Below are positions 2,629 to 64,000 of a stretch of 64,000 bases of DNA, piece after piece. Below the pieces are notes generated by a model. That model was not told the DNA's origin. It made no database searches and saw only the letters and a list, made by a program, of their open reading frames with translations. The stretch is from Escherichia coli (GTDB taxonomy: Bacteria; Pseudomonadota; Gammaproteobacteria; Enterobacterales; Enterobacteriaceae): NCBI RefSeq assembly GCF_051903065.1, contig NZ_CP178438.1; one strand, 5' to 3'. The position numbers were made by a program, and so were the translations under genes. The stretch's first letter is position 1. Each line of letters opens with the position of its first letter.

Positions 2629-8180
<5,552 letters not shown>

Positions 8181-9410: not shown

Positions 9411-9941
9411 TTATTTATTCTTGGCGCGCTCGAAGGAGGCAACGATTTCAGCTTTAGCGGCTTCTGCGTTTTCCCAACCTTCAACTTTCACCCACTTGCC
9501 TTTTTCGAGGTCTTTGTAGTGCTCGAAGAAATGAGCGATCTGTGCTTTCAGCAGCTCTGGCAGATCGTTAACGTCTTTAATGTGATCGTATTCTTTGCTC
9601 AGCTTGGTGTGCGGAACAGCAATCAGTTTCGCATCTTCACCGGCTTCGTCGGTCATTTTCAGAACGCCAACCGGACGGCAACGGATCACAGAACCCGGCT
9701 GCAGCGGGTACGGAGTCGGGACCAGTACGTCAACCGGGTCACCGTCCAGAGACAGGGTGTGGTTGATGTAACCGTAGTTGCACGGATAGAACATCGCGGT
9801 GGACATGAAGCGGTCAACGAACAGTGCGCCGCTCTCTTTGTCGATTTCGTATTTGATCGGATCTGCGTTAGCCGGGATCTCAATAACCACGTAGATGTCT
9901 TCCGGCAGATCTTTACCCGCAGGGACGTTGAGTAAGCTCAT
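9411..9941 (-). CDS. ppa: inorganic pyrophosphatase
   Basis: 176-aa [27 protein letters not shown]... classic family I PPase. Confidence 0.95.
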
Positions 9942-50844: not shown

Positions 50845-50929
50845 GCCGAAGTGGCGAAATCGGTAGACGCAGTTGATTCAAAATCAACCGTAGAAATACG
50901 TGCCGGTTCGAGTCCGGCCTTCGGCACCA
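50845..50929 (+). tRNA. leuX: tRNA-Leu (anticodon CAA)
   Basis: 85-nt sequence gccgaagtggcgaaatcggtagacgcagttgattCAAaatcaacc...ggttcgagtccggccttcggcacca with D-arm, long variable arm, T-arm and CCA end. Confidence 0.95.
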
Positions 50930-51115: not shown

Positions 51116-52381
51116 ATGGCATTAACAGATATCAAAGTCAGAGCAGCCAAGCCAACGGATAAGCAATATAAGCTGACTGATGGTGGCGGTATGCATCTGC
51201 TTGTCCATCCAAATGGTTCTAAGTACTGGCGTTTGCAGTACCGTTATGAGGGAAAGCAAAAAATGCTGGCACTTGGGGTTTATCCTGAAATCACACTAGC
51301 GGATGCCAGAGTACGTCGTGACGAGGCGCGTAAGCTGCTTGCGAATGGCGTCGATCCGGGAGACAAAAAGAAAAATGATAAGGTTGAACAGAGTAAAGCA
51401 CGAACCTTTAAAGAAGTCGCGATTGAGTGGCATGGCACCAATAAAAAGTGGTCTGAAGATCACGCCCATCGTGTGCTAAAAAGTCTGGAAGATAATCTTT
51501 TTGCAGCGCTTGGTGAACGTAATATCGCTGAGTTAAAAACTCGAGATTTATTAGCACCCATTAAGGCCGTAGAAATGTCTGGACGTCTTGAAGTGGCCGC
51601 TCGTCTTCAGCAGCGCACTACAGCCATCATGCGCTATGCAGTGCAAAGTGGGTTAATTGATTATAACCCGGCACAAGAGATGGCTGGGGCGGTTGCTTCC
51701 TGTAATCGACAACATCGTCCCGCGCTTGAATTAAAGCGCATCCCTGAGTTGCTTACAAAAATAGATAGCTATACTGGTAGGCCGCTAACCCGATGGGCGA
51801 CAGAACTCTCTTTGCTGATCTTTATTCGGTCCAGTGAGCTGCGTTTTGCTCGTTGGTCAGAGATCGATTTCGAAGCGTCTATATGGACTATCCCACCGGA
51901 GCGGGAGCCTATTCCTGGAGTGAAACATTCCCATAGAGGCTCAAAAATGCGTACAACGCATCTAGTGCCTCTTTCAACGCAAGCTCTTGCAATTTTAAAG
52001 CAGATAAAACAGTTTTGTGGGGCCCATGACTTGATATTTATTGGTGATCACGATTCGCACAAACCCATGAGTGAGAATACGGTAAATAGTGCGTTACGGG
52101 TCATGGGGTATGATACAAAAGTAGAGGTTTGTGGTCATGGCTTTCGAACAATGGCCTGTAGTTCATTGGTCGAATCAGGTTTGTGGTCTCGTGATGCTGT
52201 TGAACGTCAGATGAGCCACATGGAGCGAAATTCAGTGAGGGCCGCGTATATCCATAAAGCAGAGCATCTGGAAGAACGCCGCTTGATGCTACAATGGTGG
52301 GCCGATTTTCTGGATGCAAACAGAGAAAAATTTATCAGTCCATTTGAATATGCAAAGATTAATAATCCATTAAAACAGTAA
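51116..52381 (+). CDS. P4-type tyrosine integrase (IntB-like) marking a leuX-integrated island
   Basis: 421-aa ORF immediately 3' of a tRNA gene, N-terminal MALTDIKVRAAKP...KYWRL typical of P4 integrases, C-terminal catalytic region with conserved HxxR and Tyr; RBS agggaggg. Confidence 0.9.
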   Translation: MALTDIKVRAAKPTDKQYKLTDGGGMHLLVHPNGSKYWRLQYRYEGKQKMLALGVYPEITLADARVRRDEARKLLANGVDPGDKKKNDKVEQSKARTFKEVAIEWHGTNKKWSEDHAHRVLKSLEDNLFAALGERNIAELKTRDLLAPIKAVEMSGRLEVAARLQQRTTAIMRYAVQSGLIDYNPAQEMAGAVASCNRQHRPALELKRIPELLTKIDSYTGRPLTRWATELSLLIFIRSSELRFARWSEIDFEASIWTIPPEREPIPGVKHSHRGSKMRTTHLVPLSTQALAILKQIKQFCGAHDLIFIGDHDSHKPMSENTVNSALRVMGYDTKVEVCGHGFRTMACSSLVESGLWSRDAVERQMSHMERNSVRAAYIHKAEHLEERRLMLQWWADFLDANREKFISPFEYAKINNPLKQ

Positions 52382-54363: not shown

Positions 54364-55104
54364 TCAGAAGTTATAAGTCACACCAAGCATGATGTCATGA
54401 CTTTTAACATCAACCTCTGATTTATATTTATCGCCCCACTCATCCTTGTAACTCACACTGCTGTCACCTGCATCAATATAGCGATAGCTGAGGTCAAGAG
54501 CGATATCCGGGGTTACGTCATAACGGACACCAGCCCCAAGGCTCCATGCAAAGTTGTCAGCAGAGTCTGAGTGTGACAACGACTCACGCCCACTGTACCC
54601 GTACCCATAATCCCAGGTACTGATACCAGTTGTTTTCTGATGAATTCTGGCGTAACCAATCCCTGCGGATACCCATGGTGTGAATGCACTGTCGTTCCGG
54701 AAGTCATAGTACGTATTCAGCATCAGAGTGTTGACTGACACTTCATTCTTCAGGTCATCACGCCAGTAACCACCTGACCAGCTGTCTTTATCTACGTTAT
54801 ACTTCGAATCAGCTTTTCCACGCGCGTAAAACTCCAGTTCTGTACGAACCGGAATACTGAACTGCGGATAAAAATCATAACCGGCCGCAATACCGCCACT
54901 GAATACCGTATCATGGTCATCGCCGCCTTTATACTTTGACGTTTCTTCCTCATCTCCTGACAGGAAACGCTGGTCTGAAAGTGACACCACAGAGGCACCG
55001 GCTTTACCGGTCAGATAAAAACCGCTTTTACCTTCCTCAGCACCTGCATTTGCTGCAAATACACAGGCTGCGGCCACCACTGAAACAGCAAAAACCTTTT
55101 TCAT
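54364..55104 (-). CDS. outer membrane beta-barrel protein (OmpA-like transmembrane domain family)
   Basis: 246-aa ORF with signal peptide MKKVFAVSVVAAACVFAANAGA, alternating aromatic/hydrophobic beta-strand pattern and C-terminal ...GVTYNF. Confidence 0.7.
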   Translation of the reverse strand: MKKVFAVSVVAAACVFAANAGAEEGKSGFYLTGKAGASVVSLSDQRFLSGDEEETSKYKGGDDHDTVFSGGIAAGYDFYPQFSIPVRTELEFYARGKADSKYNVDKDSWSGGYWRDDLKNEVSVNTLMLNTYYDFRNDSAFTPWVSAGIGYARIHQKTTGISTWDYGYGYSGRESLSHSDSADNFAWSLGAGVRYDVTPDIALDLSYRYIDAGDSSVSYKDEWGDKYKSEVDVKSHDIMLGVTYNF

Positions 55105-55455
55105 TTCAATTATCTCCGTTATTGCTCCGTTGCTGCAAGCAGTACTCAGTGCATTTTAAAACCCGCCATGCGATAGTCTCAATTGAATAAAATCGATCTA
55201 ATCGATAGATGATATCGATCGTCATTAACCAGAAATTTTTATCGTATTCAGTCAGCACAGATACAACAAATGCATGCCATGCAGACAGTCATACCCGGCA
55301 ACAACAGCAGATGGTTGCTGAGCAAGCAGGGAGTGAGGCTGAATCCCGGGGAAGAAAAAACCTGTAAAATTTGTTTATTCTGCCAGGAGATAAAAGTGAC
55401 GTGTGTTCATGTAACACACCAGGGACGAAAGATGCATGGACTGACAGTTTGGGGG

Positions 55456-56512: not shown

Positions 56513-57624
56513 ATACCCCTCTGAAAATCAGTCATCAACTCACCAACACATCTTCTGAAATCTGTATTAAACTTATTGCTTAAATAGATGATATAACACA
56601 TCTTCCATTGCACGGAATCAGCGAAAACTGTCATTCTGGCAATCTTAACAAGATCATTTATCGGTTAATTTTATCAGTAAACAATGGAATATCACACTGA
56701 TAAAATGAACATTCAGGGTAAGATGATAAAATTCACATAAAAAATGCTGAAGATTATTTATTTCATGCAGATAAACGATAAAATACAAGAGAGTATATTT
56801 TTCAGTGTAAGAGTCAATCGTTCATCTCCACTGACGATCACGGTCAGCACATAAACAAAGTGAGTCCTCCTGCTTAGTCATTGCGTATCAGAAACTAAAA
56901 AACAAAAGATTCTGTAAACAACGTGACATTTTTTATGACATTTCCCGAATACAGATATATCAACAAACAGTAGTCAGCGTTGAATTAATAAGTTTTACAG
57001 GGCTATACGTATCTTATAAAACCACTCAACGACCATCATCACCTGACTATTTAGCGGGAGTATCATCTGTATAAATTCCTAAATAATAACACCTGTTATT
57101 AAAATAAGAATGCTGTCAGCAGTAAATTATTAACATAACACCTGTCCACTCTATCTGTTCTTCTAACTCAACCGGCATCGAAAATATTGCCTGATTAGTG
57201 CATCATAGCCTTCTTTTTTCTTTCCCGACCATCAAAACAAATACAACATTTACAACCACACAATAAAACAAAACTAAAACAAAACTAAAACATAAGATTA
57301 ACAACACCAATCAACAGGAAAACACTGAATATTGAGGTGCCCTGTAACCTGGAGAGCGCATACGGCGCATGTGATCAACACAGCCCATTCTTTTCTGTCA
57401 TCCCCCAAATGCAGAACAAACAAGCATAACCTAATGAATATAAAATAAAATATTATTTTTCACCATCATAAAAACATCAATGTATCTTTATATAAAAACA
57501 CTGATAACATGACATAAACATTTAAAAACATAAACAAATCACAACAAAAACATTTGATAATCACTTAGTGACAAAATAAAATTGAGACGATTTTGTTATA
57601 AGAGAGGCGCCATGGAGTGAGATA

Positions 57625-58644
57625 ATGAATAACGAACAGATGCTTATCAAATGCAAAGATCCCCGTAAATGTCGGTTTTATGCTGAATATCTGAATCACA
57701 AATACCCCAATGAATTCCCTCAGTTTGCGCCTGACAACCCACAAAACTGTATCAGAAATGTTAATGCGTTTTTAAAAGAAAAGTATTGTAATACTTCAAA
57801 CAATTCTTTTGGTGTTTTTGGTTCGACTGCAGAAGAAGCTCTCAGCAAAGAAATTAATGAACTTGAAATTATTGCAGGGCAGGCAATACTGCCTGAAGAG
57901 AGTTTTCTCTGGTTGAAAACTGACGAACTTGCGACTTTCTTTACCTGGACTACTATTTATCTGTCGAAGGAAGACCATACAAATTTCCCGGAAATAAACC
58001 ATAATTCATCAGGGATAAAAAACGGAATTGAAGTCAGAAAAAGACGAACAGTTACCGATGAAACGTTAAATACTTACAAAAAAAGTAACCTTCCGGATAA
58101 TCCATCATCCCATAACGAACGAATAAAAGTAATCATTTTATATTTTGATTCCTGTCATTCTTTAATTAATAAAAATGCAAAAAGCATATACCTCGAGGAA
58201 CTCAGGCAGACGTGGCTTAAAAATAAAAGCGCTTGTCAAAAGTTTAAGTGGCTCCTTCCTGACGATGATGAAATGTGTCAGTGGTTCTGGACAAGACTGA
58301 AACAAAAACAGGATGAAACACATCCGGTACATAACCCGGTGACCCGGTGGTTCATACCATCTTCAACGAAAGAATATTATCTTGCCTCTCTCGTCGCCTT
58401 TGCTTTATGGAAAGAGGCACCTGATACCATTGAACTGTTCAGAACACGCATAAATCATGCCTGGCATCAAAAAAAACAAAAAGACAAATATCGGAATGAT
58501 GGTAAAAAGGCTATTAATATACATATAAGAAGCAATGCGAAAGAAATGCTTGATGAACTCAGAACTGTTTACGGTCTGAGAACAGGAGAGTTTTTTGAAA
58601 TGCTGATTACAGAAAAATATCTTGAACACAAGCGAAGGAAGTAA
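57625..58644 (+). CDS. hypothetical protein, AT-rich orphan ORF
   Basis: 339-aa ORF with RBS ggagtgag upstream; lysine/asparagine-rich, several Cys/His; no family recognised from sequence alone. Confidence 0.5.
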   Translation: MNNEQMLIKCKDPRKCRFYAEYLNHKYPNEFPQFAPDNPQNCIRNVNAFLKEKYCNTSNNSFGVFGSTAEEALSKEINELEIIAGQAILPEESFLWLKTDELATFFTWTTIYLSKEDHTNFPEINHNSSGIKNGIEVRKRRTVTDETLNTYKKSNLPDNPSSHNERIKVIILYFDSCHSLINKNAKSIYLEELRQTWLKNKSACQKFKWLLPDDDEMCQWFWTRLKQKQDETHPVHNPVTRWFIPSSTKEYYLASLVAFALWKEAPDTIELFRTRINHAWHQKKQKDKYRNDGKKAINIHIRSNAKEMLDELRTVYGLRTGEFFEMLITEKYLEHKRRK

Positions 58645-58695
58645 TTCATTACCTGTTACATTCTAAATAATCTCAGACAGATATTATCTCCGTGA

Positions 58696-58731
58696 ATCCC
58701 CCGCCACCTTTCCGGTGCGCGGGGTTTTGTC
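58696..58731 (+). terminator. putative rho-independent terminator downstream of the 339-aa ORF
   Basis: GC-rich inverted repeat ccccgc...gcgggg followed by ttttgtctttttt. Confidence 0.45.
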
Positions 58732-58753
58732 TTTTTTCACCGGGAATACATGT

Positions 58754-59581
58754 ATGAATCCGTCTGATGCCATTGAGGCAATTGAAAAACCGCTCTCCTC
58801 CCTGCCTTACTCACTTTCCCGTCACATCCTGGAACATCTGCGCAAACTCACCAGCCACGAACCCGTGATTGGCATTATGGGGAAAAGCGGGGCCGGTAAA
58901 TCCTCACTCTGTAATGCACTGTTTCAGGGGGAGGTCACCCCGGTCAGTGATGTTCACGCCGGCACCCGGGAAGTGCAGCGCTTCCGTCTGAGTGGCCATG
59001 GTCACAGCATGGTTATCACTGACCTGCCCGGGGTGGGCGAGAGCCGTGACAGGGATGCAGAGTATGAAGCCCTGTACCGTAACATTCTGCCTGAACTTGA
59101 CCTGGTACTGTGGCTGATTAAAGCCGATGACCGTGCCTTGTCTGTGGATGAGTATTTCTGGCGACACATTCTGCACCGGGGACATCAGCAGGTGCTGTTT
59201 GTGGTGACGCAGGCCGATAAAACGGAGCCCTGCCATGAATGGGATATGGCCGGTATTCAGCCTTCTCCCGCACAGGCACAGAACATTCGCGAAAAAACGG
59301 AGGCGGTATTCCGTCTGTTCCGGCCCGTACATCCGGTTGTGGCCGTATCGGCTCGCACCGGCTGGGAACTGGATACGCTGGTCAGTGCGCTCATGACAGC
59401 GCTTCCCGACCATGCCGCCAGTCCCCTGATGACCCGCCTGCAGGACGAGCTGCGCACGGAATCTGTCCGCGCTCAGGCCCGTGAACAGTTTACCGGTGCG
59501 GTGGACCGGATATTTGACACGGCGGAGAGCGTCTGTATTGCCTCTGTTGCCCGCGCGGTATGGAACTGGATTTTCTTCTGA
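58754..59581 (+). CDS. YfjP/YeeP/YkfA-family small GTPase (prophage-like island backbone GTPase)
   Basis: P-loop GIMGKSGAGKSSLCNALF, G3 DLPGVGE, G4-like TQADK, C-terminal ...ARAVWNWIFF resembling K-12 YfjP/YkfA from memory; start at ATG 58754 (tool ORF starts at GTG 58715). Confidence 0.8.
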   Translation: MNPSDAIEAIEKPLSSLPYSLSRHILEHLRKLTSHEPVIGIMGKSGAGKSSLCNALFQGEVTPVSDVHAGTREVQRFRLSGHGHSMVITDLPGVGESRDRDAEYEALYRNILPELDLVLWLIKADDRALSVDEYFWRHILHRGHQQVLFVVTQADKTEPCHEWDMAGIQPSPAQAQNIREKTEAVFRLFRPVHPVVAVSARTGWELDTLVSALMTALPDHAASPLMTRLQDELRTESVRAQAREQFTGAVDRIFDTAESVCIASVARAVWNWIFF

Positions 59582-59701
59582 ACCCGGTGGTGATGCACCA
59601 GACTCTTGTTACAGATTTTTAACTCCATGAAAACACAATGCAAACGCAGCCATACCCGGGTTGTCCCCTTGTGTTGTGTTTTCCAGATTAATAGAATGCA
59701 T

Positions 59702-59720
59702 CGATCGTTATAAACGATCG
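59702..59720. promoter_or_regulatory. perfect inverted repeat (cgatcgtt-ata-aacgatcg) about 60 bp upstream of the dynamin-like gene
   Basis: 8-bp arms with 3-bp spacer in the 200-bp gap between the two GTPase genes; candidate operator. Confidence 0.3.
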
Positions 59721-59780
59721 TTTGTGGTAAATGACCTCCTCCGTGGTTGTCATGAAAATGCGTCTCAGGAAGGTTAAATA

Positions 59781-62165
59781 ATGCACGAAAAGAACATCGC
59801 CCTGCTTTGTGATGAAGCCGACCGACTTTTGCAACTGAACATTAATCTGCTCCGGCAAATGGTTGATGAACCGGATGTGTTATCTGACAGTAAGAACGAA
59901 AACAGACTGCTTTTCGATAAACAGAAAGCACTGAAAAGAATTGAGGAGCTGGAGGGCGAACAAATCAAAACCGCCCGCAGGGAGATGGTGCTGGCTGTTG
60001 TCGGCACGATGAAAGCAGGTAAATCAACTACCATCAACGCCATTGTGGGGCAGGAAATTCTGCCTAACCGTAACCGCCCCATGACCTCTGTACCGACGCT
60101 CATCCGCCACGTTCCCGGAAAAACTGAGCCGGTCCTCCATCTGGAACATATTCAGCCCGTCCGCAATTTATTAAGCACACTGCAACAAAAACTCGACACC
60201 CCGGCAGGACAGCAAGTCGCACAGACCCTGCAGCAAACCGGGGATACCTGCGAACTGCTGGATATTCTGGCAAATGATGGCTGGCTCAAAAATGAATACC
60301 ACGGGGAGGAGGAAATCTTTACCGGACTGGCATCGTTAAACGATCTGGTTCGCCTTGCTGCGGCAATGGGGAGTGAGTTTCCTTTTGATGAATACGCAGA
60401 AGTGCAGAAACTGCCGGTGATCGACGTGGAATTCAGCCATCTGGTGGGGATGGATGCATGCCAGGGAACACTCACACTGCTGGATACCCCCGGCCCTAAT
60501 GAGGCCGGACAACCGCAGATGGAAGTGATGATGCGGGATCAACTGCAGAAAGCCTCTGCGGTGCTGGCGGTGATGGATTACACCCAGATGAACTCAAAAG
60601 CGGATGAAGACGTCCGTAAAGAGCTTAATGCCATTGCTGACGTATCAGCCGGCCGCCTGTTTGTGCTGGTCAATAAATTTGATGAGAAAGACCGCAATGG
60701 CGATGGGGCAGATGCCGTACGCCAGAAAGTTCCGGCAATGCTGAACAGTGATGTGCTGCCCGCCTCCCGCGTTTATCCAGGCTCATCACGTCAGGCGTAC
60801 CTGGCTAACCGTGCGCTTCATGAGTTACGGAAAAACGGAACCCTTCCTGTTGATGAAGCCTGGGTCGATGATTTTGTCAGGGAAGCCTTCGGTCGCATGA
60901 AAAAAGAATACGTCTGTAAAGACAGTGAAATGGCAACCGAAGGGGCGACAGACCTGTGGGAAGGTTCACTTATCGATCAACTGATAACGGAAGTCATACA
61001 GAGCTCCCATTCCAGAGCGGCGGCACTGGCGGTTGATTCTGCCGCCGCAAAACTGATGCAGAATGCGGAAAATGTCAGCGAATATCTGTCATTACGCCAT
61101 CAGGGGCTACAGCAAAGCATTCAGTCACTGCAGGCGCATATCTCCAGCCTGCTGGCGGATATCCGGGAAATCGCGGACTGTCAGGAGCAGGTGACCGCAG
61201 ATGTCAGAATGGCTATGGAGGAGATCGATACTAAAACCCGGGAATTACTGACGGGGGTCTGCACCTCACTGGAAGAGGAGCTGAATGACTATTTCAGAAG
61301 CGGTAAACGCAAAGAACAGCAAATGCTGGAGGAAGAAAATTCAGCGCAGCCCCGGGAGAGAAACGCATTCGCTTTCTTTCACGATATTTTCGGAACCGGA
61401 AATCAGCATGACAGGATGCGGGACTTTGATCCGGACAGCCCCGAAATAAAATTCAGTGATCGCAGGGAAGCCCTTGAACTGATGACGCAAATCGAATCGA
61501 CCGTGACCAGCCTGCACCGTGAGGCTGAAGCACAGTTCCGTCCTGAACTGGAAAAAATCGTCAGGGGTATTGAAACAGGTTTTCGTGGTACGGCCCTGTA
61601 CGCCACAGAAAATATTGCCGGACGCATCAATGCCCGTCTGGAGGATGAAGGTTTCACTGTAAAAATCAGTTTTCCGGCAGTCAGCCAGTTACAGACCCGG
61701 CTCGCAGTAAAAACAAATCTGAGCGCGCTTATGGAGGAAAGAACGGAGACCGTCACTCGTCGCTGTCGACAGGATGGTGTCTGGGGTACGCTTTGTCGAT
61801 GGGCAAACACCAGTGACTGGGGCTGGAAAGAGTACAGTGTGGATGTGAGCCGCAGCGTGATCAATATCAACAAGGTCAGAGAGGAAGTGATGTCACTGAC
61901 CCGGGCATATTTCGGGGAGCTGCAGGCATCCATTGAGCAGGATATTAACCAGCCCGTCCGCCAGGAAATCGATGCCTTTTTCTGCGCATTCAGGGAGAAA
62001 GTTGAACAACTGCGTAACACGCTGATTCAGAGCTCTGAAGATCGTAAACGCGATCAGCAGGCGCAGGAACGGCTTACCGGGCGACTTCAGGCATTAAATG
62101 AAAGGGTTCCTGAGCTCATTACTGACAGTAAGGCGCTGAGGGAAGAGCTGGAGACAATGCTGTGA
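59781..62165 (+). CDS. bacterial dynamin-like large GTPase
   Basis: 794-aa ORF; G1 VVGTMKAGKSTTINAIVG (res 73-90), G3 LLDTPGPNE, G4 VLVNKFDEKD, followed by about 500 aa of helical/coiled-coil stalk-like sequence; RBS caggaagg 7 nt upstream. Confidence 0.8.
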   Translation: MHEKNIALLCDEADRLLQLNINLLRQMVDEPDVLSDSKNENRLLFDKQKALKRIEELEGEQIKTARREMVLAVVGTMKAGKSTTINAIVGQEILPNRNRPMTSVPTLIRHVPGKTEPVLHLEHIQPVRNLLSTLQQKLDTPAGQQVAQTLQQTGDTCELLDILANDGWLKNEYHGEEEIFTGLASLNDLVRLAAAMGSEFPFDEYAEVQKLPVIDVEFSHLVGMDACQGTLTLLDTPGPNEAGQPQMEVMMRDQLQKASAVLAVMDYTQMNSKADEDVRKELNAIADVSAGRLFVLVNKFDEKDRNGDGADAVRQKVPAMLNSDVLPASRVYPGSSRQAYLANRALHELRKNGTLPVDEAWVDDFVREAFGRMKKEYVCKDSEMATEGATDLWEGSLIDQLITEVIQSSHSRAAALAVDSAAAKLMQNAENVSEYLSLRHQGLQQSIQSLQAHISSLLADIREIADCQEQVTADVRMAMEEIDTKTRELLTGVCTSLEEELNDYFRSGKRKEQQMLEEENSAQPRERNAFAFFHDIFGTGNQHDRMRDFDPDSPEIKFSDRREALELMTQIESTVTSLHREAEAQFRPELEKIVRGIETGFRGTALYATENIAGRINARLEDEGFTVKISFPAVSQLQTRLAVKTNLSALMEERTETVTRRCRQDGVWGTLCRWANTSDWGWKEYSVDVSRSVININKVREEVMSLTRAYFGELQASIEQDINQPVRQEIDAFFCAFREKVEQLRNTLIQSSEDRKRDQQAQERLTGRLQALNERVPELITDSKALREELETML

Positions 62166-63067
62166 CTTCACCATTTATTCAACAAATTGCTGATAACCGG
62201 GTATGTCAGGTACTCACCTGTCTTCCTGAAAAATTTGTGGTTGATTTCGCAAACGGAATCGATGTTGCACAGGAGCATATCCGCACGGCCGGAGAGCGCA
62301 CGTTCTTCCGGCGTTTAAAAGAGGGGATGACCGGCGAAGGCGCTGCACGGCAGAATGCCATCAATGCTTCGCTTGCACAGGGCGTTGAGGCGTCCCTGCG
62401 CTGGCTGACGGAGCTGACAACGTCACTTGCCACCACAAACTACGCGATTACCCGGGTAAACGACAGGGTCAGTTCACTGGTCAGTGATACTGCCAGGCTG
62501 GCGCATTATTCGGCTGACACGCGGGAGCAGTTACTCACCCTGGCCGATCAGGTTCACCAGAAACTGAATCATCTTGAAGAAAAACTCCACCGTGTTGACC
62601 AGGTTCAGCGGGCGCAGTTACATCTTGAGCAGATATTCTCATGGTGGAGCGCCGGGCGATATGCGTCATTTTCCCCTGCCGGACGTTGTTATGTGGCACT
62701 TGAAGAGCTTCGCTGGGGCGCGTTTGGTGATGTGATACGCCAGGGCGAAACAGGCCAGGTTAACCAGCTACTGGATATTCTCAGACATAAAGCATTAACG
62801 CAGATGGCACAGGAGAGTGGCGGTAGTGCAACCGTGCGTCTGAACACTCTGGACTGGCTTGGTGGTCAGGGCCGGGAGCAGGCAGATAACGAGTGGCATG
62901 ACGCGATTAACTGGCTGGGGGACTGGTGCAGTGAAGAGCAGCATCCGGTGATCTGGTCAACCACGCAGGCTGCAGAACACTTACCGGTTCGCATGCCTCG
63001 CCTCTGCTCTGCAGAACGCCTCTCTGAAAGTATGGTCGATGAAATATTTCAGAAGGGGGCAGCATGA
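62162..63067 (+). CDS. hypothetical protein of unknown function, translationally coupled to flanking genes
   Basis: 301-aa ORF whose GTG start overlaps the upstream stop (GTGA) and whose stop overlaps the downstream ATG (ATGA); predicted helical middle region. Confidence 0.55.
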   Translation: MTSPFIQQIADNRVCQVLTCLPEKFVVDFANGIDVAQEHIRTAGERTFFRRLKEGMTGEGAARQNAINASLAQGVEASLRWLTELTTSLATTNYAITRVNDRVSSLVSDTARLAHYSADTREQLLTLADQVHQKLNHLEEKLHRVDQVQRAQLHLEQIFSWWSAGRYASFSPAGRCYVALEELRWGAFGDVIRQGETGQVNQLLDILRHKALTQMAQESGGSATVRLNTLDWLGGQGREQADNEWHDAINWLGDWCSEEQHPVIWSTTQAAEHLPVRMPRLCSAERLSESMVDEIFQKGAA

Positions 63068-64000
63068 GTACAGAAATGAAAACGGGGCTGGTGCTGTCCG
63101 GCGGCGGGGCGGTGGGCGCTTATCAGGCAGGTGTGGTTAAGGCACTGGCAGAGTGTGGCACACAGATCAGCATGGTTTCAGGGGCCAGCATTGGCGCATT
63201 CAATGGTGCCATTATCGCGGCCTCTCCCGATCTGTCAGAAGCAGCCGCACGCCTGGAGGCGCTCTGGAAGCATCTGGGGAATAATCAGGTGCTGTCGGTA
63301 AACCGATCGGTTTACTTTTCATTGCTGAAAAAAATGGTTCAGGCCATGAACCTCTGCCAGATCCCCGGACGTGCAGGAGCACTGCTTACGACACTTCTTC
63401 GCCATATATCGATAATCAACGGCTTCGACAATCCGATGGCTCAGCCGCTGTTGTCAGATGAGCCTCTGACAGCGCTGTTGGATCATTATCTTGATACTGA
63501 TGCTCTGGCAGACGGGCTACCGCTGTATGTGTCGCTGTACCCCACAGAAGGGGGCATGCAGGATATTATTGACTGCATTCGTGCTGAACTGGGTGCCGGA
63601 ACCACGAAAAACGCCGTTTTTCAGCATATCCAGAGCCTGCCCCGCGGACAGCAGAAAGAGGCTCTGCTTGCGTCAGCCGCGCTGCCCCTGCTGTTCCGTC
63701 CCCGTGAGGTTCAGGGGACAATGTTCGGTGATGGTGGTATGGGAGGATGGCGAAATATGCAGGGAAATACCCCTGTGACGCCTCTGGTCGATGCCGGATG
63801 CAATATGGTGATTGTGACGCATCTGAGTGACGGTTCTTTATGGGATCGCCAGGCTTTTCCGGACACCACAATCCTTGAGATCCGTCCCCGGAAAAGGCTG
63901 AAATATGCAGGTGATGGTGGCAACAGCGGCGGTCTGCTCAGTTTCACGTTGGCACATACCGACGCCTGGCGTCAGCAGGGCTATGAAGACACGATGCTGA
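63064..64000 (+). CDS. patatin-like phospholipase (3' end beyond window)
   Basis: Oxyanion-hole GGGAVGAY, catalytic Ser in GASIG (GxSxG) and catalytic Asp in FGDGGM (DGG) in the correct order and spacing; ORF is open to the window end. Confidence 0.8.
   Translation, partial: MSTEMKTGLVLSGGGAVGAYQAGVVKALAECGTQISMVSGASIGAFNGAIIAASPDLSEAAARLEALWKHLGNNQVLSVNRSVYFSLLKKMVQAMNLCQIPGRAGALLTTLLRHISIINGFDNPMAQPLLSDEPLTALLDHYLDTDALADGLPLYVSLYPTEGGMQDIIDCIRAELGAGTTKNAVFQHIQSLPRGQQKEALLASAALPLLFRPREVQGTMFGDGGMGGWRNMQGNTPVTPLVDAGCNMVIVTHLSDGSLWDRQAFPDTTILEIRPRKRLKYAGDGGNSGGLLSFTLAHTDAWRQQGYEDTML

Follow-up and report, generated by a model that had tools for sequence, protein, structure and literature searches.

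A 64,000-nt stretch of Escherichia coli DNA (contig NZ_CP178438.1; the window below means this whole stretch) carries two GTPase genes side by side near its 3' end, one for a small GTPase of the YeeP type and one for a dynamin-like GTPase. We consider it quite probable that the small GTPase gene, yeeP, is part of the backbone of a genomic island and not a dedicated partner of the dynamin-like protein, that the slot behind it lies under a switch of the agn43 type, and that a three-gene operon headed by the dynamin gene is the cargo of this slot. The two GTPase genes are adjacent owing to the island architecture and not to a dedicated pairing. An earlier reading of the same DNA, made from the sequence only, had asked whether the small GTPase was island backbone or a functional partner of the large one. 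Genome counts, yeeP alleles that do not depend on the cargo, operons next to deleted yeeP genes and distant operons all speak for backbone, and a functional partnership found no support. This answer is itself ordinary; the noteworthy point is the switch between the two genes, an agn43-type Dam/OxyR region which the sequence-only reading missed.

Both GTPase open reading frames (ORFs) lie next to each other as first described, and they match the Pfam domains MMR_HSR1 and Dynamin_N, respectively. E. coli GDSC2BY4G (NZ_CP136025.1; locus L001) is 100% identical to the window over this region, where its annotation by the Prokaryotic Genome Annotation Pipeline (PGAP) runs GTPase family protein, dynamin family protein, RdcB family protein and patatin-like phospholipase. 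The genes are as follows.

58754..59581, plus strand: YeeP-type small GTPase, 275 aa (MMR_HSR1; similarity to K-12 YeeP, YfjP and YkfA)
59582..59780, plus strand: agn43-type spacer, 199 bp (alignment to the agn43/flu region)
59781..62165, plus strand: dynamin-like GTPase, 794 aa (Dynamin_N; similarity to RdcA/CrfC)
62162..63067, plus strand: RdcB/YjcZ-family protein, 301 aa (similarity to K-12 RdcB; PGAP name)
63064..64000, plus strand: patatin-like phospholipase, 356 aa in full and cut by the window end (motifs; complete at 16465-17535 of L001)

The dynamin and RdcB-like genes overlap by 4 nt, as do the RdcB-like and patatin genes, and the gap between the small GTPase gene and the dynamin gene is 199 bp.

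Island backbone and cargo operon

The yeeP gene occurs with many kinds of neighbours. In our census of 5,426 complete E. coli genomes, summarized as counts, yeeP-type genes were found at 9,720 places in 4,538 genomes and the dynamin gene at 3,253 places in 2,492 genomes (46%). The 3' end of yeeP is joined through the spacer to the 5' end of an Ag43/Cah autotransporter gene in at least 3,422 genomes and to the 5' end of the dynamin gene in 1,975, while 635 genomes have the 3' end of Ag43/Cah joined to the 5' end of the dynamin gene. By these counts yeeP is therefore mostly followed by an autotransporter, and no more than a third of its copies have the dynamin operon anywhere behind them. The same backbone can be seen in different states: the 339-aa gene that precedes yeeP in the window, then yeeP, Ag43 and DUF932 without the operon (L023); the same with Ag43 plus the operon (L004), or Cah plus the operon in another island (L002); and yeeP followed directly by the operon, as in the window and, with a different gene upstream, in L022. 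The autotransporter stands between yeeP and the operon in both such islands that we read (L002 with Cah and L004 with Ag43). In K-12, DUF932 genes lie directly downstream of yfjP and ykfA, and the contexts of yeeP, yfjP and ykfA there bear out the fixed backbone position in CP4-type islands that had been proposed. The downstream slot does carry variable cargo, namely Ag43/Cah, the dynamin operon, or both.

The yeeP alleles do not follow the cargo. The sampled alleles are 96-98% identical whatever stands behind them, and the one closest to that of the window (97.8%) comes from an island with Ag43 only (L023). In islands of the type found in uropathogenic E. coli (UPEC) strain 536, the adjacent yeeP lacks residues ~64-209, which hold the switch regions and G3-G5, and the operon is intact. 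Such internally deleted yeeP genes make up 5 of the 13 direct junctions sampled in the window-region search and 4 of 13 in the junction search. The sequence-only reading had named the GTPase beside unrelated cargo, and the operon without the GTPase, as signs of a gene that is backbone only. Most yeeP copies adjoin Ag43/Cah or other genes, and the operon persists beside deleted yeeP genes and, in distant loci, without the GTPase, which largely amounts to that outcome.

Relatives of the operon point in the same direction. Among species-representative genomes a single related locus was found, in E. albertii, so that the close relatives are confined to Escherichia. The protein homologue search returned only near-identical E. 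coli and Shigella proteins, and the diversity came from a search of 50% clusters, in which representatives with 36-41% identity keep the order of dynamin, YjcZ and patatin genes. The neighbours of these distant operons include a toxin-antitoxin pair with a WYL regulator (L010) and an AraC-type regulator in Burkholderia vietnamiensis (L014-16), and a metagenome contig (L013, 3416-10210) has two full-length dynamin genes in tandem before the YjcZ and patatin genes. No YeeP homologue was found by tblastn in L010, in L013 or in the Burkholderia vietnamiensis loci L014-16. Since the operon is kept in distant loci without YeeP, and YeeP occurs without the dynamin gene, the three-gene operon of dynamin-like GTPase, RdcB-like protein and patatin is the conserved, self-contained functional unit and the small GTPase is backbone. 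The operon is hence best studied as a three-gene unit without the small GTPase.

The small GTPase falls into the YeeP/YfjP/YkfA family, as the alignment that the sequence-only reading called for confirmed. It is 98% identical to the surviving yeeP remnant of K-12, 97-99% identical to the 290-aa YeeP proteins of other strains, and 52% and 51% identical to YfjP and YkfA, respectively, in end-to-end alignment. Its ORF starts at the ATG at 58754; an alternative GTG at 58715 would yield 288 aa, and the ATG is favoured by PGAP and by the N-termini of YfjP and YkfA. The protein matches MMR_HSR1 (1.2e-14) and has, in order, the motifs G1 (GKSGAGKS-43), G3 (DLPG-90) and a G4-like TQAD-152, in which Q replaces K as it does in YfjP (SQSD) and in the homologue of Budvicia (NQAD). 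The solved proteins most like it are Der/EngA, Era and TrmE, and the NCBIfam matches agree with this. Judged from its sequence, the small protein is a putative GTPase of the Era/Der type (TRAFAC) whose G domain is complete and whose C-terminus forms a helical tail. The window allele has an in-frame deletion of 45 nt (15 aa) near the C-terminus, between two SVAR-coding repeats with the junction at ~59543-59554; it hits the conserved helical tail and leaves 275 aa instead of 290, most other genomes having an 873-nt gene. The AlphaFold2 model of the protein, built on a 6-sequence alignment, is poor (mean predicted local distance difference test score 62.7, with the C-terminal 57 residues below 50).

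The 794-aa protein belongs to the dynamin superfamily, having a large G domain with a long helical region after it. It matches Dynamin_N at residues 71-299 (8e-18) and has G1 (GTMKAGKS-75), G3 (DTPG-235) and G4 (NKFD-298); the most similar solved protein is the bacterial dynamin-like protein of Nostoc, over the P-loop region only. It aligns over its whole length with the NCBIfam CrfC model (E 6.7e-171) and with K-12 RdcA (CrfC/YjdA; 34% identity). The score of 570 bits is half of the equivalog cut-off of 1146, and we therefore regard the protein as an island-borne full-length paralogue of RdcA/CrfC and not as its orthologue; it also lies at an island site rather than at the rdcAB locus (yjdM-rdcAB-proP). 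The 301-aa protein is 30% identical to K-12 RdcB (E 2e-38), and its distant homologues carry PF13990 (YjcZ). The patatin protein has intact GGGxxG, GASIG (GxSxG) and DGG motifs in translation and weakly matches RssA and a lipase of the cyclic-oligonucleotide-based anti-phage signalling system (CBASS).

The K-12 relatives suggest what the operon may do. RdcA requires GTP hydrolysis, and nucleotide-free RdcA docks together with RdcB onto the diguanylate cyclase DgcE and activates it; RdcA was reported to be soluble (PMC6510439). Since the island operon has a translationally coupled patatin lipase, absent from rdcAB, the island paralogues probably act on this lipase or on the membrane and not on DgcE. 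By analogy, the island dynamin and its RdcB-like partner would read the GTP state, dock onto the co-encoded patatin lipase and control it, which could yield a membrane-directed stress or anti-phage response. The PADLOC search gave weak matches only, and thus the locus is absent from the catalogued defence systems. The PHROGs search was uninformative for the locus.

Several observations on yeeP and the operon stand apart. In UPEC 536 (L003, 9096-9530) and similar genomes the yeeP gene has an in-frame deletion of ~146 codons that spares the N-terminus, the P-loop and the C-terminal tail, and its product is called a hypothetical protein in the annotation; this form is common among the B2-type strains sampled. 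YeeP-family GTPases (32-43% identity) are also encoded on small mobilizable ColE1-type plasmids of 4.8-5.9 kb, e.g. pTW14425_5.9k (L024), where the genes adjoin those of a 144-aa hypothetical protein and an EcsC-family protein and there is no dynamin gene. Near 2957211 of NZ_OZ546963.1 the match to the dynamin gene is limited to its last 62 nt, and the annotations at this place are GTPase and RdcB family; this genome seems to have lost the dynamin gene from the locus. The many crfC, rssA and yeeP 'mutations' of PMC7696260 were left aside, as they look like products of mis-mapping among paralogous island copies.

The switch region behind yeeP

The 199-bp spacer can be aligned with the sequence 3' of yeeP in K-12 and in the Ag43/Cah islands, which shows it to be a form of the agn43/flu regulatory region. 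In shuffle tests against agn43-type spacers the window allele reached z = 7-9 and typical alleles 8-13, the same range as for agn43 alleles compared with each other. The conserved features are the TTG of the -35 element, TTAATAGAAT with the -10 hexamer TAGAAT, and a GATC cluster, so that a promoter lies directly 5' of this cluster. In K-12 the -10 hexamer stops 6 nt short of the annotated start of isrC, a gene located in the flu leader. Our sigma-70 scan did not pick up the agn43-type promoter, as only the TTG of its -35 element matches. An Rfam scan of 58600-60000 (E <= 1) gave no match, not even to the K-12 IsrC region. In the window the spacer holds the following elements.

59669-59674: -35 element TTGTGT
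59692-59697: -10 element TAGAAT
59703-59706 and 59716-59719: GATC sites
59704-59718: predicted OxyR half-site ATCGTTATAAACGAT, the only one remaining
Before 59781: ribosome-binding site, followed by the dynamin ATG at 59781

We scored the OxyR tetramer motif as ATAGnTnnnAnCTAT-N7-ATAGnTnnnAnCTAT, with 20 specified positions; the motif was reportedly established by Toledano et al. in 1994. Typical dynamin-type spacers (UPEC 536, E. albertii and L022) score 16/20, the experimentally characterised flu site of K-12 scores 14/20, and no place elsewhere in the 64-kb window exceeds 15/20. In the typical dynamin-type spacers of these three, three GATC sites stand at +11, +29 and +42 relative to the -10 element, against +11, +30 and +43 in agn43-type spacers. 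The UPEC 536 spacer is at 9531-9747 of L003. The half-site is quoted in PMC2909390. In agn43, OxyR bound to unmethylated GATC sites represses transcription and Dam methylation excludes OxyR, so that the OFF and ON states are inherited; loss of dam locks the switch OFF, and loss of oxyR locks it ON (PMC3764049, PMC4872104, PMC2909390).

These features suggest a common arrangement in yeeP-type islands, in which a promoter overlapped by an OxyR site with three Dam (GATC) targets would lie directly after yeeP, and any cargo that enters the slot, Ag43/Cah, the dynamin operon or both in series, would come under the switch. In typical islands the operon would switch heritably, being OFF when OxyR occupies the unmethylated GATC sites and ON when these are methylated by Dam. 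We infer phase variation of the dynamin operon for most islands. Where Ag43/Cah precedes the operon, cah and the dynamin gene are 110 bp apart, with neither a GATC nor an obvious terminator between them, and the operon may be read from the same switch through cah. Our literature search found no paper linking dynamin genes with phase variation by Dam and OxyR.

The window itself carries a damaged copy of the switch. It lacks 18 bp between the first and the second GATC site, and with them one GATC and one OxyR half-site; two GATC sites remain, and the OxyR motif score of 12/20 is at background level, so that the arrangement of three GATC sites inside one OxyR tetramer site is absent from this allele. 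The exact deletion junction occurs in 3 of the 5,426 genomes. The predicted effect, which we take from motif analysis, is a loss of OxyR repression: the operon of the window would have escaped the repressor and be uniformly expressed.

A recent report bears on this region. An operon of dynamin family, RdcB family and phospholipase genes was described in 2026 on two islands of E. coli MP1, where it is in the cluster most strongly up-regulated in Kapi1 lysogens under all conditions and was proposed as a putative phage defence (PMC12922286). By the description in that paper it is of the same kind as the operon of the window; the paper is silent on a yeeP/GTPase neighbour and on the GATC/OxyR region. 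The five up-regulated MP1 genes are probably the dynamin, RdcB-like and patatin genes plus two hypothetical genes, going by the gene order of L022. The very large clone-to-clone difference in expression of the homologous MP1 operon (PMC12922286) is the sole indirect hint of heritable switching. A phase difference between single-colony ancestors would offer an alternative explanation of the Kapi1 result, and this pitfall has been documented for agn43 (PMC3764049).

Taking these points together, we tentatively put forward a wider picture, to which we give a little short of an even chance. The yeeP slot would be a portable Dam/OxyR phase-variable site that drives the lipase operon in about a third of the genomes (1,975/5,426). 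The operon would be a GTP-sensing, lipase-armed module, possibly directed against phages or membrane stress, that is deployed in a heritable subpopulation as bet-hedging. The 'induction' in Kapi1 lysogens would be a clonal phase difference, and the window would hold a rare variant with a locked switch. The operon is present in 46% of the complete E. coli genomes, mostly (1,975) behind a close relative of the best-understood epigenetic switch of E. coli. If it phase-varies, comparisons of transcriptomes from single colonies would give spurious 'regulation' of its genes, phenotype tests would have to control the ON/OFF state, and the yeeP slot would be an example of one switch reused for unrelated cargo.

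GATC pairs also occur at other places. The best OxyR tetramer match of the whole window (55183-55219, 15/20) is palindromic, has two GATC sites 22 bp apart (55195 and 55217), and lies 80-115 bp 5' of a minus-strand gene for a 246-aa outer membrane protein (54364-55104); the island may have another switch of the Dam/OxyR type here. In Budvicia aquatica (L018, 3812-3860 and 7361-7410) there are GATC sites paired at 13 nt, a spacing that is typical of OxyR/Dam half-sites, on a background density of ~2/kb. One cluster starts 80 bp past a YeeP-like gene, and a double pair lies ~600 bp 5' of a dynamin-YjcZ-patatin operon.

Alternative explanations and the surrounding island

Some of our results weigh against a pure backbone role of yeeP. 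In Escherichia we saw the operon at no place other than the yeeP slot, where it follows yeeP directly or stands behind Ag43/Cah, and hence the E. coli data alone cannot separate linkage from function. The Budvicia aquatica operon (38% identity) lies on a CP4-like island too, 4.3 kb downstream of the gene for a YeeP-like GTPase with 46% identity. The sampled genomes with a deleted adjacent yeeP hold other yeeP copies (2-4 matching places per record), so that YeeP could be supplied in trans in these genomes, and a trans-acting or accessory role is possible. We also found no strong terminator after yeeP, where the hairpin folds no better than shuffled sequences (z = 0.2), and read-through co-transcription could therefore occur.

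The small GTPase could thus be a functional partner of the dynamin-like GTPase, forming a heterotypic G-domain pair with it or acting as its co-regulator, which we consider unlikely. The constant linkage of both genes in Escherichia, their shared island in Budvicia and the lack of a strong terminator between them would fit such a partnership, but at least two thirds of the yeeP copies have no adjacent dynamin operon, the alleles are unsorted by cargo, the operon is intact next to deleted yeeP genes, Ag43/Cah intervenes in the two such islands read, the autotransporter-dynamin junction occurs in 635 genomes, and the distant operons of L010, L013 and L014-16 have no YeeP-type GTPase. Bacterial dynamin-like proteins often work as side-by-side pairs (PMC4159319), and the small GTPase weakly matches the G-domain part of the LeoBC (3e-08) and LeoA (4e-04) models of PADLOC. 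The small protein is however Era/Der-like and not dynamin-like, and where a distant operon does have a second GTPase (L013) this is a full-length dynamin. The chromosomal paralogues RdcA and RdcB have no small GTPase nearby, and the K-12 rdcAB operon works in this way (PMC6510439). The genes inside the operon overlap by 4 nt, in contrast to the 199 bp that follow yeeP.

A split dynamin of the LeoC/LeoB kind, in which the small protein supplies the G domain or a part of it, had been offered as an analogy by the sequence-only reading. We find it very improbable. It has on its side the gene order, with a small GTPase 5' of a large dynamin-like protein, and the weak LeoBC matches of both proteins; it is already contradicted by the G1, G3 and G4 motifs that each of the two proteins has for itself. 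LeoC (206 aa) holds just the P-loop and switch 1 of a G domain plus a membrane anchor, and switch 2 comes from LeoB (PMC4159319). No hydrophobic anchor is present here (top 19-residue hydropathy 1.16), the 794-aa protein aligns end to end with the single-chain RdcA, and the two proteins share their P-loop neighbourhood only (E 7e-04).

YeeP may also be part of an expression platform, in which the GTPase gene and the Dam/OxyR switch travel together and YeeP modulates the switching or acts on the envelope-active cargo (Ag43 or dynamin/patatin). The switch lies at a fixed distance from the yeeP stop codon in the Ag43-, Cah- and dynamin-type islands examined, and the Budvicia GATC cluster with the same 13-nt pair spacing also starts 80 bp past its YeeP-like gene. 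We nevertheless think this quite unlikely: agn43 phase variation has been described as set by Dam and OxyR (PMC3764049, PMC4872104), K-12, in which the switching was studied, has a yeeP pseudogene only, yfjP and ykfA have no switch downstream, and truncated yeeP genes coexist with intact switches. Our preferred reading is accordingly still that of yeeP as backbone and the three-gene operon as cargo.

The window contains the start of the island, which is inserted at a tRNA gene and has a P4-type integrase.

50845..50929, plus strand: tRNA-Leu(CAA), leuX, the attachment site of the island (ARAGORN)
51116-52381: P4-type integrase/tyrosine recombinase gene, 3' of leuX (ORF list and L001 annotation)
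Between the integrase gene and an IS5 element, minus strand: phosphoethanolamine transferase gene and outer membrane protein gene
Between the outer membrane protein gene and the 339-aa gene: IS5 element
57625..58644, plus strand: gene for a 339-aa hypothetical protein, in a low-GC stretch (ORF)

The five sister islands examined (L002, L003, L004, L022 and L023) have the order GTPase, cargo if any, DUF932, antirestriction, RadC and YeeU/CbtA, and the distal backbone of the window's own island is broken up by insertion sequence (IS) elements. The 339-aa protein has no family match in PADLOC, NCBIfam or PHROGs. Its gene also precedes yeeP in L004 and L023; in most other islands the homology to the window begins only at ~58660, i.e. 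past this gene. The stretch that contains it (57000-58700) has 35-42% GC against ~52% around it, is found 5' of yeeP in some islands only, and is labelled 'transcriptional regulator' in one record. Past the window end, L001 (17671-19313) has a 227-aa hypothetical gene 3' of the patatin gene and then a 136-aa hypothetical gene interrupted by IS1. The intact form of the 136-aa protein matches phrog_8968, and in the intact islands L003 and L022 these two genes complete a five-gene same-strand cluster before DUF932.

A CP4-57-like island on the IncHI1 plasmid pNDM-CIT of Citrobacter freundii (L025) has a YfjP-type GTPase with no dynamin gene and with a DUF932 gene downstream. A four-gene CBASS-like cluster (nucleotidyltransferase, ThiF/E1, JAB and SAVED) lies 5' of this GTPase, at the position where K-12 has abpAB and rnlAB, and the slot upstream of the YfjP-type GTPase thus looks like a hotspot of defence genes.

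Comparison with known systems

The small GTPase occupies the same backbone position as the putative GTP-binding proteins YeeP, YfjP and YkfA of the K-12 cryptic prophages CP4-44, CP4-57 and CP4-6, 5' of Ag43 or DUF932 genes. The window allele is intact, apart from the 15 residues missing near its C-terminus, whereas yeeP of K-12 is a pseudogene, and the slot holds the dynamin operon instead of flu.

The LeoA/LeoBC proteins of enterotoxigenic E. coli H10407 (listed as 'Eleos'/'Dynamins' in PADLOC) resemble this locus in being dynamin-superfamily GTPases encoded on an island with more than one GTPase gene in a row. The PADLOC matches are weak (3.6e-05 for the dynamin to LeoBC), the partner genes are different (RdcB-like and patatin), and this locus has neither a divided G domain nor a membrane anchor.

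RdcA and RdcB, the dynamin-like system that activates DgcE, are closer to the cargo operon. Both systems have these two genes with overlapping stop and start codons, and the island dynamin keeps the G1 lysine and the G2 threonine context. The island operon differs from rdcAB by the added lipase gene and by its location on an island.

The agn43 (flu) switch is the model for the spacer. The sequences are homologous and lie directly 3' of yeeP; they share the -35 and -10 elements, three GATC sites whose offsets hardly differ, and an OxyR tetramer motif that spans these sites. From the first GATC to the second the spacing is 18 bp in dynamin-type spacers and 19 bp in agn43, and the 5' untranslated region is ~77 nt in the former and ~220 nt in the latter. 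In agn43 the region drives an autotransporter, whereas the dynamin-type spacer would drive an operon of cytoplasmic GTPase and lipase genes.

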